From assembly GCA_964016885.1 (NCBI GenBank), contig OZ024740.1, positions 43,710,001 to 43,774,000 of the forward strand: a DNA stretch of 64,000 nt. Reading direction: 5' to 3'. This DNA comes from Eledone cirrhosa (Eukaryota). The notes below the pieces were generated by a model. That model was not told where the DNA came from. It saw nothing but the letters and a program-made list of their open reading frames with translations, and ran no database searches. Made by a program: the position numbers and the translations under genes. Of the stretch, positions 3,609 through 54,930 are shown piece after piece. How positions within the stretch are numbered: position 1 is the first letter of the stretch; each line of letters starts with the position of its first letter.

Positions 3609-6600
3609 TTTCATTTATTAGCCACAAGGACCGACATGTAGGGGACAATACAAAGACAGGGACAGTGGGGGTTTACAATAAGGTCGAGTAAAAGTGCACA
3701 ATGGCAAGACTAATTTAACAATGAAAATATAAAAATATAAAATAAACTATGCAAAATATAACAAAATAAATTCCCCGATAGGGGGTGGACGACCCTGGGG
3801 TGATTCGGGAACCCCACCAATCCTGAACCACCCTGCGCTTCTAGGGCACCCAGGAGAGCACCCCTCTCCTCAAGTTAGCCAGCCTATAGGCGCATGGTCA
3901 GAGTAGGCCCATTCACACGAGCCATTCTCGCCACATTCACCCACCTTTTAGCAAATGTACTGGTGAAACTTGAAGAAGTTGATGAGGGATTGGCCGAAGA
4001 GAAAGTGTCTGTCTTTAGTCCTTTCAACCTGGTCCACCATATAATCTCTTTCGCAACTGCCACCAGACAGAGGAAAATGTCCTGCTCTTCCTGACCTAAG
4101 GAAGGTGGCGGCTCGATCTTCACCATGGACTCGGCCGATAACCGGATTCGTTCCACACGCGACAGTAGCTGTTCGACATAACTCCACAAGTCAGTAATGC
4201 ACGGACATTGCACAAGTGCGTGCAGAACGGTTTCGTCGTTCTGTGCGCATCTTGGGCAGGTCCGTCTGACAGCACTTCCGTGCCTGTAGAGTTTATCCCT
4301 AACCGGCAGTGCCCCCCGGTAGCACTGCCAAGCGAGGGATTTCTGGAAATTGTCCATCGTCCCCGGCTCAAAAGTCCTCCGGTACAGACTGGTCAGTTCG
4401 ACTTCGTCGAGGCCCAAAGCTTCTCCGAGTGCGTCATCGCACTTGCCCACCACTAATCCTCTATAGAACTCGAGAGTGGAAGTTCCACTGATCGCATTGC
4501 CCGCTTGGTAGAGGGCAGTGAGTGCCTGGCAACATTCCAGGTGCCAGTCACCCAGTCTCGGTCTCTTCTTGACCCAGGACTGCAGCTGAGTCAAAGAAAT
4601 GAGCTGCGGAAAGGCCCGTCTGATAAACGGCGACCACACCTGTTCACCATTGAGGCAGAATATCTGGAGATGTCGCAGCCTCAACGCATGTCTGCGCATC
4701 ATTAACCACGGCGTGCCCAGCCCTCCGCGTAGAGGGTGCTGGCAGCAGATGGACCGCCTCACCAACGGAACTTGTCCCCTCCACAAGAATTTGAAGAGGA
4801 GCCGTTCCAACTTGACGAGGCGCGGACGGGGGCAAGGCACGACGGTTAGGCGGTAATAGATGACGGACGCGATGTACGCATTCGCCACCTCCGCGCGACC
4901 TTTCAGTGATAGCTTCCTCCCAGCCCATTTTTGGGTGAGACTGGCTACTCTGCTCGTTACCTCGTCCCAATTCTTTTCCACCTGGAGGTCTGGTCCGAAC
5001 CAAACCCCAAGCAACTTTACTGGTCCGTCCGTCCAGCGCCCCACGACACTGTTGGACGGCATGGGCTTGCCTCTCCAGGTTCCGAGCTGCAAGCCCACCG
5101 ACTTTTCCGGGTTAAGTTTAGCTCCTGTCAACCTTTCATATTCCTTCAATAAGGTGCCGACCACCTCGATTTCTGAGGTGTTCGACACCATCACGGTTAT
5201 GTCGTCCGCATAAGACGACACCGCCTTTCCACGTCCCGGTTCGAGCGGGATGCCCTGCAACAGCTCCAGCTTCCGCAGTAAAGGCTCGAGTGTCAATACG
5301 TACAGAGGGGAAGAGAGAGGGCACCTTTGACGGACCGATCGGGAGAGCCGAAATGGTTCCGAGAGATGGCCATTAACCTTGACCACCGAGCGTGTGCCGC
5401 TGTGCATTGCAACGATCCAGCTTCTAAAGACAGGGCCGAAGCCAGCTGCTTTGAGGACAAACTCCAGATACCGATGGTCGACCCTATCGAATTCTTTCGA
5501 TTGATCTAAATTGATCAGTGCCTCACCGAAGCCAGGTTTACACCCTACCCTCTCTATGATGTATCGCATGAGGTGGAGATTGTCGTGTATGGACCTGGCT
5601 GGGATTGCGCAAGTTTGCGCCTCCCCAACCAAATCCTCGACGACAAGCGCCAATCTCTTTGCTAACACCTTGGCCAAAATCTTAAACTCTGTGTTGAGCA
5701 GAGTTATGGGCCTGAAGTTGTCTAATGTATCCCTCTTGTTCTCGTCTTTCCTTATCAGCGTCACCACTTCCCTGCTCACAGAACTGGGAATACTCCCATT
5801 CTGCTGCCAGTTACAGTAGAGTGCTTCGAGGTGTTCGGAGAACAAGTCTGGCATATTTACGTAAAGCTCGTAGGGCAGGCTATCCAAACCGGGTGACTTG
5901 CGCCTCATGCAGCCGACAAGGGCGTCCTGAATTTCGGCTGAAGTAATCGGCCTTTCGCAGCGCTCAGCGTCGACCGTCGAGATGCGCGGCAAGCCGTCAA
6001 GGTAGGGGCTGAAATCGGCTACTCTCTCTGACTCGCCACTCTCCCCGAACAACCGAGCAAAGTGCTGGCGAAAGGCCTCACACATCCGCTTGGAATCGCT
6101 TATCTCGTGTCCGTCTCGGTCCGCCAAAGACCGAATTGTGGTTTTATTACCACGCTGCGCCTCCGCCACGCGGGCCCATCGAACAGCTTTAGTTCCCTCG
6201 TTTCTCAGCGCACGCGCCTTAGCTCTGACAATGCAACCTTCGTGTTTGGCATTGAAGAAATGATCTAATGTCATTCTCACCGCTAGCACGTCAGTTGCGA
6301 TGCCACTACAAATAGCCTCGTCTAACTTATCTACCAGCTCCCCCTCCTTTCTATTTTTCTCTAACGCTAGTTCTTTGCTGAACTCTATCGAAGTTACTCT
6401 AATCTCTCTTTTGAGAGCCCCCCACCATCTGTTGTTGATGATCCCCCCTGTCAACTTTTGCTTAACTAACTTATTGACTCGGTCCCTGTAAGCCTTACGT
6501 GCCGGAAATGACATGTTCAGCTTCCAGTAACCCGGTCCTAACCTACGCGTTTTATTTAGGTCGACCGTACAGATCACAAATTTGTGATCTGAATAGGCGA

Positions 6601-7340
6601 CCGTTTTAAAAAGCGGACAGCCCACACTATTTCTATCTATTTTCCTAATGAAGATTCTGTCTATATACGATCTAGATGACCCCATTCGGTTGGTCCATGT
6701 CCATACTGGCACATTGGGGAAGTCTAGTCGATACCTGTCAGACAGTTGGAACTGGCTGAGTAGGTGCTTGAGGCTTTTGCACACCCCTCTCCTATCGGCT
6801 ACTCCCACACAATCCCAGCGTGCGTCTAAGATGCTATTCCAGTCCCCCGCTAACAGTAAAGGGCGAGAAGTACCCAGAAAGGTCTCCAGGCGCCTAAAGA
6901 AGTCAGGTCGTCCGGCCCTTGTAGGGGCGTAGACGGCCAGCAGTCTAAAGGCACCACCTTCGCTACTGCTCACATCCAAGACCACCAACTTACCGTCCGA
7001 GTCCCGGAAGATCGACCTTACCTCGAGATCCAGTCCTTTCCTAAACAGCACTGCCACCCCACCCTCCATTCCCGGCCTGCTAACAGATGCGAAGATCTGA
7101 TAGTCGTCTAAAATGGGGGCTAGTGCACGCGTGTCGGAAATTCTGGTCTCGCTTACGGCAATCACATCCATTTCCAGCGACCGGAGGTCGTTGAGCAGGC
7201 GACCCTGCTTCCAGGGTGACCCCAGGCCGCGAACATTTAAACTTCCTACTCTTAATATGGCCATATTGGTAAGCTAAGAGAGAGAGAGGGAAGGTTTACT
7301 TACCTCCCGGGTCTTGTGAAGGTCGGGTGGTTCGACCTCC
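3608..7340 (-). mobile_element. Tx1-clade LINE copy B, 5'-truncated just upstream of ORF2, flanked by (AAT)n on both sides
   Basis: Contains ORF2 at 3884-7264. The 3' UTR ends GTGGCTAATAAA followed by (ATT)n. Confidence 0.92.
3884..7264 (-). CDS. Tx1 ORF2: APE endonuclease, reverse transcriptase and C-terminal CCHC finger (1126 aa; probably inactive)
   Basis: GDWN and SDH (APE); KSPGLD, FRPITLLN, YADD (RT); CPRC..ETVLHALVQC. Substitutions at conserved sites (KEFDRV, RQRCPLS) and an apparent frameshifted segment near the C-terminus. Confidence 0.9.
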   Translation of the reverse strand: MAILRVGSLNVRGLGSPWKQGRLLNDLRSLEMDVIAVSETRISDTRALAPILDDYQIFASVSRPGMEGGVAVLFRKGLDLEVRSIFRDSDGKLVVLDVSSSEGGAFRLLAVYAPTRAGRPDFFRRLETFLGTSRPLLLAGDWNSILDARWDCVGVADRRGVCKSLKHLLSQFQLSDRYRLDFPNVPVWTWTNRMGSSRSYIDRIFIRKIDRNSVGCPLFKTVAYSDHKFVICTVDLNKTRRLGPGYWKLNMSFPARKAYRDRVNKLVKQKLTGGIINNRWWGALKREIRVTSIEFSKELALEKNRKEGELVDKLDEAICSGIATDVLAVRMTLDHFFNAKHEGCIVRAKARALRNEGTKAVRWARVAEAQRGNKTTIRSLADRDGHEISDSKRMCEAFRQHFARLFGESGESERVADFSPYLDGLPRISTVDAERCERPITSAEIQDALVGCMRRKSPGLDSLPYELYVNMPDLFSEHLEALYCNWQQNGSIPSSVSREVVTLIRKDENKRDTLDNFRPITLLNTEFKILAKVLAKRLALVVEDLVGEAQTCAIPARSIHDNLHLMRYIIERVGCKPGFGEALINLDQSKEFDRVDHRYLEFVLKAAGFGPVFRSWIVAMHSGTRSVVKVNGHLSEPFRLSRSVRQRCPLSSPLYVLTLEPLLRKLELLQGIPLEPGRGKAVSSYADDITVMVSNTSEIEVVGTLLKEYERLTGAKLNPEKSVGLQLGTWRGKPMPSNSVVGRWTDGPVKLLGVWFGPDLQVEKNWDEVTSRVASLTQKWAGRKLSLKGRAEVANAYIASVIYYRLTVVPCPRPRLVKLERLLFKFLWRGQVPLVRRSICCQHPLRGGLGTPWLMMRRHALRLRHLQIFCLNGEQVWSPFIRRAFPQLISLTQLQSWVKKRPRLGDWHLECCQALTALYQAGNAISGTSTLEFYRGLVVGKCDDALGEALGLDEVELTSLYRRTFEPGTMDNFQKSLAWQCYRGALPVRDKLYRHGSAVRRTCPRCAQNDETVLHALVQCPCITDLWSYVEQLLSRVERIRLSAESMVKIEPPPSLGQEEQDIFLCLVAVAKEIIWWTRLKGLKTDTFSSANPSSTSSSFTSTFAKRWVNVARMARVNGPTLTMRL

Positions 7341-14190: not shown

Positions 14191-14354
14191 TCAGTGCAGT
14201 AGACTGATGAAATGAGACAGTTTTCTGTGATTCTATTAATGTCTTTTTTTAATTCTACATTGGGTAAGATATGGTCATGACAACAACTGAAAAATCTGAT
14301 GATATTGCTCATCGTATATATGTGTATATATATGTGTGTGTATATATATATATA

Positions 14355-14938
14355 AGCAATGAAATAAAAACAAAGAACAAGTTCTTTATATTAAATAATT
14401 CATCATTTTACGATCGTTTCTAGGATGTATATGTGTGTTGGTATGTATAACATAGATCTATGTAAAAATATTACAAATTATCAGAGGAAATATACATACC
14501 TTCACATATACATGCTGTCTTCAGAAATGATGAGATTTGTTTATTGAAAAAAAAACAACAAAGATTTAATATAAAAGGTCTGTTTGGGAACAGGTTTTGA
14601 ATTGACCAATATATATATATATATAAAAATTTATAAAAACAATGAATAAAAACAAAGAACAATTCCTTATATTAAAAAATTCATGATTTTACGATCGTTT
14701 CTAGGATATATATGTATGTTGGTATATATATCATATAGATCTATGTAAAAATATTACAAACTATCAGAGGAAATATACATAGATCTATATGATAAACATA
14801 CCAACATACATATATCTAAAATTACATAGATCTATATGATATACATACCAACACACATATATATCCTAGAAACGATCGTAAAATGGTGAATGTTTTAATA
14901 TAAGGAACTTGTTCTTTGTTTTTATTCATTGTTTTTAT
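14355..14938. repeat. Direct plus inverted repeat set (pseudo-LTR-like) carrying hammerhead halves
   Basis: 14360-14497 is repeated at 14642-14780 and inverted at 14822-14938. Confidence 0.85.
14400..14533 (-). ncRNA. Type-I hammerhead ribozyme with long stem II
   Basis: Minus strand: TCATCATTT-CTGAAGA-[long stem II]-GAAA-CGATCG-TA|AAATGATGA. 9-bp stem I, palindromic stem III, GUA cleavage triplet. Confidence 0.8.
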
Positions 14939-15078
14939 TAATTTATCTTGATTCTGTTTTCCTATGATTTACATCGAACATTTTTGAATGCATCTTCTCT
15001 TTTCATGATATTTGGATTACATTGAGTTCTTCATACGGATTGGACACTACCGTATATTTTGGTAGATTTATCTATCTA

Positions 15079-15191: not shown

Positions 15192-15242
<51 letters not shown>

Positions 15243-15435
15243 TAAATTTAGCGAGAATCGCATTTCGGCGGGTAGAAAAAGAGTTATGGTGGCAAGCGCT
15301 CCATAATTAAAAAATCAGAGCTAAACAATATGTTAAAACGCCATACAAACTGAAAAAGTGGTCAAGAAGGCATTAACCACCTAACCAATAAACAAATCAA
15401 GCTAAACAGGTCAAACAAAATAAATAATAAAATAA

Positions 15436-15507
<72 letters not shown>

Positions 15508-23538: not shown

Positions 23539-23864
23539 TAAATAATATACAGAGATATCTAATATATAAGCATGTAAGTATGCCAGAAAATATGAATTTC
23601 CCTGGAAATTGGAAAAATAATGATTGATTTCAGATCTAATTGGCTCCTCATCAGAAGACGCTTCTATCTTACAATCAATAACTAGGAAGCATGTATTTGA
23701 CAGGTATACATACGCATTTGCTCTTAGTATTATTCTGAAATGGAAGTACTAATTTGTATATAATTGGCGCTCCTGTTGGTAATTAACTAAGATATAAAGT
23801 AAAAAGTGCGCAAACAGCCGAAGTTTATGATAAAGTTATATCTGTATTAATACTAACAGCGAAT

Positions 23865-23913
<49 letters not shown>

Positions 23914-24020
23914 AAAGTTTTTATTTAAAATTGTTGGGTTACAACAAGTAAATATTTTATAGCTGATATAAAGCACTCGACAAGTTTTTGGTACGCTCTC
24001 ATAAGATAAAATACAAAATT

Positions 24021-24070
<50 letters not shown>

Positions 24071-24110
24071 GATATTAAACAAATGGAAACTATATTTATA
24101 AAACCATATT

Positions 24111-24176
24111 TATTTCATTATACATATTTCAGGGATACCATATTAAAAATATGGCATGCCTTCGTCAGATAAAATA
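24111..24176 (-). ncRNA. Type-I hammerhead ribozyme (left palindrome arm)
   Basis: Inverted copy of 24310-24375. Confidence 0.75.
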
Positions 24177-24309
24177 CAAAATATAAACAGTTTTATAAGT
24201 AAGTTTGACGTACCATAATATAAGCGACCATTAAATTAGGAGCCTCCTAATTTAATGGTCGCTTATATTATGGTACGTCAAAATTATTTATAAAACTGTT
24301 TATATATTG

Positions 24310-24375
24310 TATTTTATCTGACGAAGGCATGCCATATTTTTAATATGGTATCCCTGAAATATGTATAATGAAATA
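24310..24375 (+). ncRNA. Type-I hammerhead ribozyme (right palindrome arm)
   Basis: TATTTTAT-CTGACGA-AGGCATGCCATATT/AATATGGTATCCCT-GAAA-TATGTA-TA|ATGAAATA. Confidence 0.75.
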
Positions 24376-24569
24376 AATATGGTTTTATAAATATAGTTTC
24401 CATTTATCATTGATATTATACTTCAGGAAACCTGTTGAGTGTTTCGAATGTGTTATAAATAAATTTGTTGAATTACCAACAAATTAAATATCTGTTTGCT
24501 TATATATATATATATATATATATACTTCACTGCTCGCAAGTGTTTTTTAAACTTCATATCATGTCTCCC

Positions 24570-24640
24570 TATTTTATCTGATGAGAACGCAAGTATCATC
24601 CCATGATGATATTTGTTTTTGAAATGCGCATAATAAAATA
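24570..24640 (+). ncRNA. Type-I hammerhead ribozyme in a ~150-bp (TA)n-flanked module
   Basis: TATTTTAT-CTGATGA-[16-bp stem II, loop CCAT]-GAAA-TGCGCA-TA|ATAAAATA. Confidence 0.85.
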
Positions 24641-24792
24641 CATGGAACTCTTTTAACCATCTTTTGATCTTATATATATATATATATATATATACCATTA
24701 CATCAATCGTCCCGCGAGCTGGTCGCCAGAGAAACGATTGTAATATTTATAATAAATTTTATTCGTCGCAACACTGATTCGCCGTTTCTTAT

Positions 24793-24834
<42 letters not shown>

Positions 24835-24842
<8 letters not shown>

Positions 24843-25655
24843 CTTACCACCGTTTCCTGGGGTCCGGGTATAATTTTCAATCTTATTTTATTATTTGTTT
24901 GACCCGAATAGCTTGGTCGTTTCTATGGCTTTGCGGATAATGGTTTAACCATCGTCTCAGTGTGTTTGGCCTTTTAACTTATGTTGTAGCTCTAGTTCAC
25001 TAGCTTCTATGGAGCGCTTGCCACACATCTCGGAAGTTGTTTTTCGCTAATTTCCAATATCCGAAATGCGATTCTCGCTAATTTATATTTGTATTAATCT
25101 CCAGATTCTAGCTATTAACTAGTTAATTTTTTTGATTTTTTTAGTTAATCTATTGACTAATTAATAGCTCTTGTTAATTTTTAAAACTATTCTGTTGAGA
25201 GCTTAATTCGTTTTGTGATATTTGGCAATTTTGCAATAACACACATACTGAATTCATCCGCCAAGACTAGGGGTTGTCTCCATTATCACACCCCACGTGG
25301 GTTTTGTAACGGTCAGTCCTTAGCTTTGCATAGAACTAAATTTCTGTTGAAAAAGTGACTTCCTTGTTCGATCATCATACCAAAATTTTAACATTATTTG
25401 TTTAAGCAGACGGTACCTGATTTAGGAGTTGCAGAAACCCCATATTGGATCTTACCACCGTTTCTAGGGGTCCGGGTATAATTTTCAATCGTATTTTATT
25501 ATTTGTTTTGCCCGAATAGCTTGGTCGTTTCTATGACTTTGCGGATAATGGTTTAACCATCGTCTCAGTGTGTTTGGCCTTTTAACTTACGTTGTTGCTC
25601 TAGTTCACTTGATTCTATGGAGCGCTTGCCACACATCTCAAGAGTTGTGTTTCGC
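24835..25655. repeat. ~205-bp direct repeats (24835-25040 and 25443-25648) of an unclassified interspersed element
   Basis: ATATTGGATCTTACCACCGTTTC...GGAGCGCTTGCCACACATCTC occurs twice. A related inverted sequence lies at ~15240-15350. Confidence 0.8.
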
Positions 25656-25874
25656 TGTGTTTGCATAGCTACGGCTTCCTAAAGCCGTGTTACTTTACAA
25701 ATACGAAATTTCTATACATATCCATCAAATACATATTTCCTTATAGTTGATTGGGTGATGTGTCATATTCCTTTCAAATCCAGACAGTGAAATACAGAAG
25801 AATCTCAGAAATTGGGGGCTTGTAACTGGGCATGTATCAGCAATTGTGATAATAATAATAATAATAATAATAAT

Positions 25875-50018: not shown

Positions 50019-50199
50019 CCCCAAAACTACACACTTGTAAAATGTATCCCTTGTGATTGTTTCATATGTTTATTTATATGTTAATCAATTTTTAGTTGTT
50101 ATATATATAATATATATATATATACATATATTATGCATACACCCCCACGTTATATATATATATATATATAAATATATTGTTGCATAAGTTTGGTAGAAA

Positions 50200-52220
<2,021 letters not shown>

Positions 52221-52717: not shown

Positions 52718-52970
52718 CTAGTTTAAATTTCCAGTTATAATATAACTGAAAATTTAAACTAGAGTTTAGTTTATGCAGACACAAATTGAACTAGATTTGA
52801 AATTCCCTTAAAGCAAAAATTCCCGGAGGAAATCAAACCCATGCAATTTTCCTTGTGAATATAACTTATATTCACAAGGAAAATTGCATGGGTTTGATTT
52901 CCTCCGGGAATTTTTGCTTTAAGTGAATTTCAAATCTAGTTCAATTTGTGTCTGCATGAATTAAACTCTA
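52718..52970. repeat. Two adjacent palindromes (52718-52762; 52760-52970 with 105-bp arms), each with a 1-nt spacer
   Basis: Centres CAGTTATA-A-TATAACTG and GAATATAA-C-TTATATTC. Confidence 0.92.

Positions 52971-53907: not shown

Positions 53908-54930
<1,023 letters not shown>

Follow-up and report, generated by a model that had tools for sequence, protein, structure and literature searches.

What is a 146-bp insert, set between two TA tracts of an octopod genome and carrying a complete hammerhead motif, and how did it get there? The insert (the module) lies in a 64,000-nt stretch of Eledone cirrhosa DNA (assembly GCA_964016885.1, contig OZ024740.1, positions 43,710,001 to 43,774,000), here called the window, which is repeat-rich animal sequence. 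The module is probably what is left, after 5' truncation, of the 3' end of a Hydra-type lineage of Penelope-like elements (PLEs), pasted into a (TA)n microsatellite. Descent from PLEs accounts for the flanking TA, for a ribozyme placed near the 3' end and for the inverted copy in a sister insert, a link missing from an earlier note made from the letters of this DNA. Coordinates count from the first base of the window, and published systems are cited from the available parts of the papers.

Table. Features of the module, its neighbours and the Hydra-type remnant in the window
Feature	Position	Strand	Remarks
TA-bounded module (146 bp)	24525-24670	+	member of an abundant hammerhead-bearing repeat family
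(TA)12, left flank of module	24501-24524	.	likely part of split target
(TA)12, right flank of module	24671-24694	.	begins 38 nt past predicted cut
Type I hammerhead of module	24570-24640	+	predicted cut after A24632
Stem I of module hammerhead	24570-24577/24633-24640	+	8/8 Watson-Crick pairs
CTGATGA core of module hammerhead	24578-24584	+	
Stem II of module hammerhead	24585-24620	+	16 positions: 15 pairs, one C.U mismatch, 4-nt loop
GAAA of module hammerhead	24621-24624	+	
Palindromic stem III of module hammerhead, ATGCGCAT	24624-24631	+	
Stem I extension, 4 bp	24560-24563 with 24641-24644 (span 24560-24644)	+	beyond 6-nt bulge 24564-24569
Sister insert, TA-bounded (431 bp)	24070-24500	.	two outward-facing hammerheads
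325-bp palindrome of sister insert	24081-24405		97.8%
Sister hammerheads	24310-24375 (+) and 24111-24176 (-)		
Decayed relative, TA-bounded (115 bp)	23911-24025	-	nhmmer E 0.0023
Decayed Hydra-type Penelope-like element	50171-51690	-	lies between (TA)n tracts; RT and GIY-YIG frames are broken
3' hammerhead of Hydra-type remnant	50234-50283	-	palindrome ACTTAAGT, A at cut, 68 nt before TA tract

The earlier note had named an 8-bp stem I, CUGAUGA, GAAA, a palindromic stem III and an AUA cleavage site, and every part is where the note placed it; A24632 is the base before the predicted cut. Its (TA)n-flanked module of ~150 bp measures 146 bp between two (TA)12 tracts, and its description of the module as mostly a hammerhead was too generous, the ribozyme taking up 71 of 146 nt, about half (85 nt counting the bulged 4-bp extension of stem I, whose bulge positions vary among family copies). 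The 16 positions given to stem II are present, but they hold 15 pairs, three of them G.U, and a C.U mismatch. The motif has the CUGANGA, GAAA and U16.1-H17 core elements and three helices, open at helix I; stem III is 2 bp as a monomer and 8 bp as a dimer, and pair 10.1-11.1 is G.U or A-U where G-C is usual.

A strict hammerhead scan of the 64-kb window returned three motifs, at 24318+, 24578+ and 24168-, and a hammerhead motif with stem I of at least 8 occurred in none of 60 block dinucleotide shuffles (at most one under looser settings); the hammerhead motif of the module is genuine, beyond chance. The minimal-hammerhead scan (stems I and II of at least 4) found nothing in the window. By eye, a decayed CTGATGA...GAAA arrangement resembling a minimal hammerhead, with weak stems, lies at 23600-23652 (-); it failed the scan. 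Rfam hammerhead models gave no match to the module at gathering score and none among the 27 matches at E <= 10; a stem II of this length may lie outside the range of the models. Rfam microRNA-model matches at 24186-24301 were rejected as a mere reflection of the DNA palindrome. A pattern scan of viral contigs gave no match, and 11 metagenome loci from the pattern scan, none of which has the fold of a hammerhead, were put down to chance (stem I 0-5, no full palindrome, best nhmmer E 0.28).

Five TA tracts alternate with four inserts (115, 431, 146 and 101 bp) over 23867-24837, which looks like a microsatellite struck repeatedly by TA-targeting elements. The sister insert shows the inverted 5' duplication typical of PLEs, its inverted and forward arms ending 49 nt and 133 nt past their cut sites, respectively; the module itself has no partial tandem (pLTR), inverted 5' copy or tail. 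The module had been said to share stem I with the ribozyme at 24310 and to differ from it completely in stems II and III. The 5' strands of stem I are indeed identical, but the 3' strands agree at 7 of 8 positions; stem II differs in sequence but is built alike, with 3 bp, a pyrimidine mismatch and a long hairpin, and stem III is identical at 5 of 8 positions. Compensating changes keep both versions of stem III self-complementary. The view that structure is kept without sequence is supported. The 115-bp relative retains both stem I strands and a core with one change, has lost GAAA and stem III, and ends 50 nt after the start of the stem I 3' strand. On the other side of the module, the TA-bounded 101-bp insert (24695-24795) is an abundant repeat, related copies of which end in (TA)n, and carries neither a hammerhead core nor a folding signal (z 0.2 and -0.3).

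The minimum-energy monomer fold of the 147-nt piece is not the hammerhead and is no better than that of shuffles (z -1.0); the 85-nt hammerhead core does better than shuffles on the plus strand (z -2.19) but not on the minus strand (-0.67). Two module copies co-fold as a swapped double hammerhead, in which stem III has 8 bp, at -41.1 kcal/mol, compared with 2 x -15.1 kcal/mol for the monomer folds, a comparison based on the free co-fold value only. The core layout and the co-fold support the prediction of a cut after 24632 and the predicted dimer logic, which has been described in PLE and newt ribozymes (PMC4209133; PMC6765202). A cis heterodimer of the ribozymes at 24318 and 24578 was disfavoured (-71.4 vs -87.4 kcal/mol; hetero stem III -1.6).

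A word search of sequencing runs gave nine holders from six organisms, three with at least half of the words, and none of the listed holder runs is on record as RNA. Four of the 12 listed runs, X1 and X10 (organism A), X4 (organism B) and X6 (organism C), were aligned on 24410-24795 at 80% likeness, while X2, X3, X5, X7-X9, X11 and X12 were left out; the alignment skipped 24410-24532 and 24662-24703, and both TA junctions of the module were masked. Aligned contigs numbered 2398 in X1 (588 at 99% or above, 793 at 95-99, 783 at 90-95 and 234 lower), 12 in X4 and 40 in X6, and 4340 RAD reads of X10 aligned on the tested stretch; the X1, X6 and X10 counts take in the neighbouring repeat at 24704-24795, and X1 may come from the source sample. 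We infer thousands of module-family copies, a figure distinct from the contig and read counts and from summed contig depth, none of which equals the copy number of the family.

Other copies of the module, as the earlier note supposed, are thus found in runs of three organisms. Its further suggestion of a minimal module with the same boundaries throughout fared less evenly: family copies cover 24533-24661 in all four runs, and contigs reach 24537 in the three organisms, but the 3' half is deeper than the 5' half (2.7x, 2.8x, 5.8x and 2.0x in the four runs), some copies start within stem II (at 24598, 24602 or 24613), and the junctions are masked. Sister subfamilies that differ in stem II, and a single pile of 1141 RAD fragments whose ends lie at 24623, contribute part of the 3' excess. 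All four runs keep a high depth at 24540-24552, the masked 5' edge, a pattern equally compatible with a fixed 5' end. Loose ends at 24602, 24612 and 24624 belong to sister subfamilies that keep the core end and have a long stem II hairpin of other sequence; in one contig from organism C the core is missing and stem III follows directly on stem I, and a fold-back joint, 24544/24613, occurs in five reads.

The variant analysis covers 40 of 58 variants, those listed, with 27 inside the module and 12 at paired positions. Pairing is kept by 11 of these 12, four of them at G.U pairs, where any transition keeps pairing. At Watson-Crick positions seven of the eight listed variants keep pairing (binomial p 0.035, the variants not being independent events), and all seven would leave A.C mismatches on the minus strand. 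The only pairing break among those listed, 24626 G>T, disrupts the palindrome, is confined to X10 and coincides with the pile of 1141 fragments ending at 24623. Twelve core positions have no variant among those listed, and N7 varies. Because the variants that keep pairing do so on the plus strand, the source copies of the family were kept folded as plus-strand RNA; the variant pattern shows selection for pairing in that form.

Under the favoured origin from a Hydra-type PLE lineage, a parent RNA, autonomous or not, would have borne the ribozyme near its 3' end. In the Poseidon PLE of Anolis AT-rich DNA is nicked and reverse transcription starts internally on uncut RNA (Frangieh et al. 2024, PMC11167929), and the same course would have a GIY-YIG/RT enzyme nick AT-rich DNA and begin copying downstream of the ribozyme on uncut RNA, for the module 38 nt past the cut site. 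Such a start would explain why the insert spans the cut site; since it does, the template must have been uncut or re-ligated RNA and not a linear cleavage product. Copying would have come to an early stop 53 nt before the core, with TA left on either side. When the ATGCGCAT palindromes of two copies pair, stem III is predicted to reach 8 bp in place of the 2 bp available to a monomer, so that cutting would occur in tandem or paired transcripts only and a lone copy would be silent. The selection for pairing on plus-strand RNA, shown by the variants, acted on the source copies of the family.

Several traits of the module point to the Hydra clade. Published Hydra-clade PLEs carry a hammerhead near the 3' end, and 26 of 27 listed families, one of them from octopus, target (TA)n (Craig et al. 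2021, PMC8557442); the module has (TA)12 on both sides, at one locus only, and a hammerhead with helix III near its 3' end, 38 nt from cut to TA. PLEs generally show 5' truncation, inverted 5' copies and tails (PMC8557442). Cut-to-end distances here are 38 nt (module), 49 and 133 nt (sister arms) and 50 nt (23911-24025), and published Hydra distances range from 30 to 355 (median 79), with 30-50 nt in 10 of 24 families and a second group at 114-153 nt, within which the long sister arm falls (PMC8557442). The match to the 30-50 nt families is suggestive only, because in 14 of the 24 published families the cut lies over 50 nt from the end. The clade is defined by RWK, DKT and CxCX5C motifs with GIY-YIG (PMC8557442), and these ORF traits (RT with RWK and DKT, C-terminal GIY-YIG, CxCX5C linker) are absent in or next to the module. 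Having no ORF, the module may count as a Hydra fragment or derivative but not as a full member. The parent element was not found, there being no ORF in or next to the module within the window, and the available part of the Craig supplement holds no exact match to six 12-13-nt motifs of the module and sister ribozymes; the 3' end of Hydra-1_oBim differs by eye.

A decayed Hydra-type element lies ~26 kb from the module; its ribozyme sequence is unrelated, so it is context and not the parent. A full HMMER search with the read-through frame gave 3295 relatives at E <= 0.001 (0 of 159 candidates in a word-based protein search), and full-length relatives align back over 51609-50575 (tblastn E 2e-44). 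Among its long relatives DKT/S is found in 15 of 18, RWK/R in 8 of 18, CxCX5C in 8 of 18 and YRDD in 18 of 18, with weak Pfam support (GIY-YIG at E 0.0009 and 0.02, two of eight). Pfam run on 28, then 137, of 221 window frames gave no GIY-YIG, and the remnant, missed in this way, was later found by motif scan. Its hammerhead has one extra base in the core, a 6-bp stem II and a perfect 8-nt palindrome, and the pattern it follows has four matches in the window versus one in 100 shuffles. The ribozymes of module and remnant have the same loopless 8-nt palindrome design with A at the cut, in different sequences.

At 53964-54790, (TA)29 is followed by an inverted copy, a forward copy, a 496-bp unit and a second forward copy (179/180 identical) with a 32-bp 3' extension absent from the inverted copy, a PLE layout without an ORF; here GAAA, a 4-bp hairpin and then CTGATGA form permuted half cores, and stem II was not found. 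A 604-bp unit with a 215-bp partial repeat (93%), a partial-tandem layout, adjoins (TA)21 at 24838-25656; a TA-bounded relative (68%) lies at 15239-15439, and no hammerhead core was seen. Further DNA palindromes, TA-linked or free, lie at 14300-14944 (83%) and 52760-52970 (97%); they come with partial repeats, and scans found no hammerhead in them. An open LINE frame of 1128 residues at 3884-7270 (-) has endonuclease, RT and zf-RVT domains, and its nearest named relative, a protein of the octopod Argonauta hians (69% across the part searched), makes an octopod host probable; several degraded relatives of this LINE lie in the window.

The shared cover of 24533-24661 in all four runs, with contigs to 24537 in three organisms, would also suit a discrete non-autonomous mini-element of ~146 nt with fixed ends, derived from the 3' end of a PLE and inserted at (TA)n by a Hydra-type enzyme that copies it in trans. 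This SINE-like unit, without a Pol III promoter, is somewhat unlikely. It is consistent with the variant pattern as selection across the family and with a share of about zero for contigs running into unlike sequence, a zero that is uninformative with both junctions masked; the 3'-biased depth and internal starts, however, fit truncation, the three relatives in the window begin 20, 53 and 75 nt before the core, and the T6 run at 24543-24548 would stop Pol III. Stated more boldly, the module would be a discrete, fixed-end, ribozyme-centred retroposon with thousands of dispersed solo copies in several octopod species, hijacking a Hydra-clade enzyme and cutting only when transcripts of two loci pair via ATGCGCAT, which we hold to be unlikely. 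If this bolder reading were true, the family would not be a tandem retrozyme but an RNA that cleaves in trans across the genome, in dependence on its concentration; fixed ends, if they prove real, would make it a SINE-like parasite of Hydra-clade elements.

A type I hammerhead with a dimer-type stem III is also what the solo monomer of a non-LTR retrozyme would carry, with head-to-tail arrays elsewhere, dimeric-hammerhead cutting, circularisation and rolling-circle reverse transcription, and monomers are common in the pLTR-related retrozyme families (bioRxiv 2026.07.22.740005). Such an origin is improbable: the window holds no tandem copy, there is no terminal repeat, no head-to-tail joint is found among the joints listed (two joints at masked repeats were dropped), and the module folded as a circle is weakly paired at -16.4 kcal/mol, whereas published circles are highly self-paired. 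Octopus Naiads target (TA)n (PMC8557442) and APE-RT LINEs are abundant in the window, so that a Naiad-clade PLE, an APE-type LINE or DNA-level copying of microsatellite flanks might have moved the module with the ribozyme as passenger. Published Naiads, however, are without canonical hammerheads (PMC8557442) while the module has a full one, neither poly(A) nor a LINE-like tail occurs in the module, and the strand-specific conservation of pairing speaks against passive DNA copying; movement by these means is very improbable.

Truncation of a Hydra-type PLE lineage, the preferred origin, fits known biology and would hold little surprise for a specialist. The role of the hammerhead in Penelope-like elements is open, its cleavage being dispensable for PLE insertion in vitro (PMC11167929), and the module family offers many natural variants under strand-specific selection for pairing. 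With its strong GC-containing palindrome and unusually long stem II, the family is also a clean system for dimer-only cleavage.

Compared with the available rows for the Hydra clade (PMC8557442), the module is alike in its (TA)n target, in a type I hammerhead near the 3' end (36 nt from cut to end in Hydra-1_oBim, 38 nt in the module), in a stem III of 4-bp self-complementary arms, and in the inverted 5'-truncated copies known from Penelope-13_HM and seen here in the 24070-24500 insert. In contrast, it has no ORF, and its ribozyme sequence is unrelated to the listed Hydra rows; its stem II has 15 pairs plus a mismatch versus 3-7 bp (longer than in 24 of 24 rows), its 8-bp stem I is longer than in 23 of 24, and its stem III lacks a loop nucleotide (8 nt versus 9-10).

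Most published PLE ribozymes are single dispersed motifs of truncated copies, some with a palindromic helix III, and even their dimers are only weakly active (Cervera and de la Pena 2014, PMC4209133). The module resembles them in CUGANGA, in a 5' side rich in U, in a long helix II, in a palindromic helix III that implies dimers and in high sequence variability among mostly single, dispersed, truncated copies; some of the published motifs also form opposite-strand pairs 100-700 bp apart. It differs in lacking the bulged base after A9 and the G10.1-C11.1 pair, and in having a helix I of 8 bp versus 4-5 and a helix II about twice as long (PMC4209133). The available part of that supplement holds no cephalopod row.

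Non-LTR retrozymes form tandem units whose transcripts are circles (Cervera and de la Pena 2020, PMC7229834), and a survey that sampled no mollusc in the part available gives pLTRs as their likely origin (Li, Clavereau, Pollet 2026, bioRxiv 2026.07.22.740005). Retrozymes are, like the module, non-coding, low in GC and high in copy number, with a type I hammerhead and probable PLE mobilisation, and solo monomers occur; unlike them, the module has no tandem array in the window and no sign of loop 1-loop 2 contact geometry. The word 'microsatellite' does not occur in PMC7229834, where TA microsatellite targeting goes unmentioned. Poseidon (PMC11167929) supplies the likely mechanism for the module and has two end points (tail), but it belongs to another clade, has a minimal ribozyme and ends about 85-92 nt past the cut.

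Penelope expansions have been noted in octopus (PMC8967140), and in the open literature on octopods we found no report of such a hammerhead family, only Hydra-1_oBim and Naiads appearing in the available part of PMC8557442. The module would work like a PLE terminal ribozyme. The kind is known, a PLE-type hammerhead, and what is likely new is the module family as its member.
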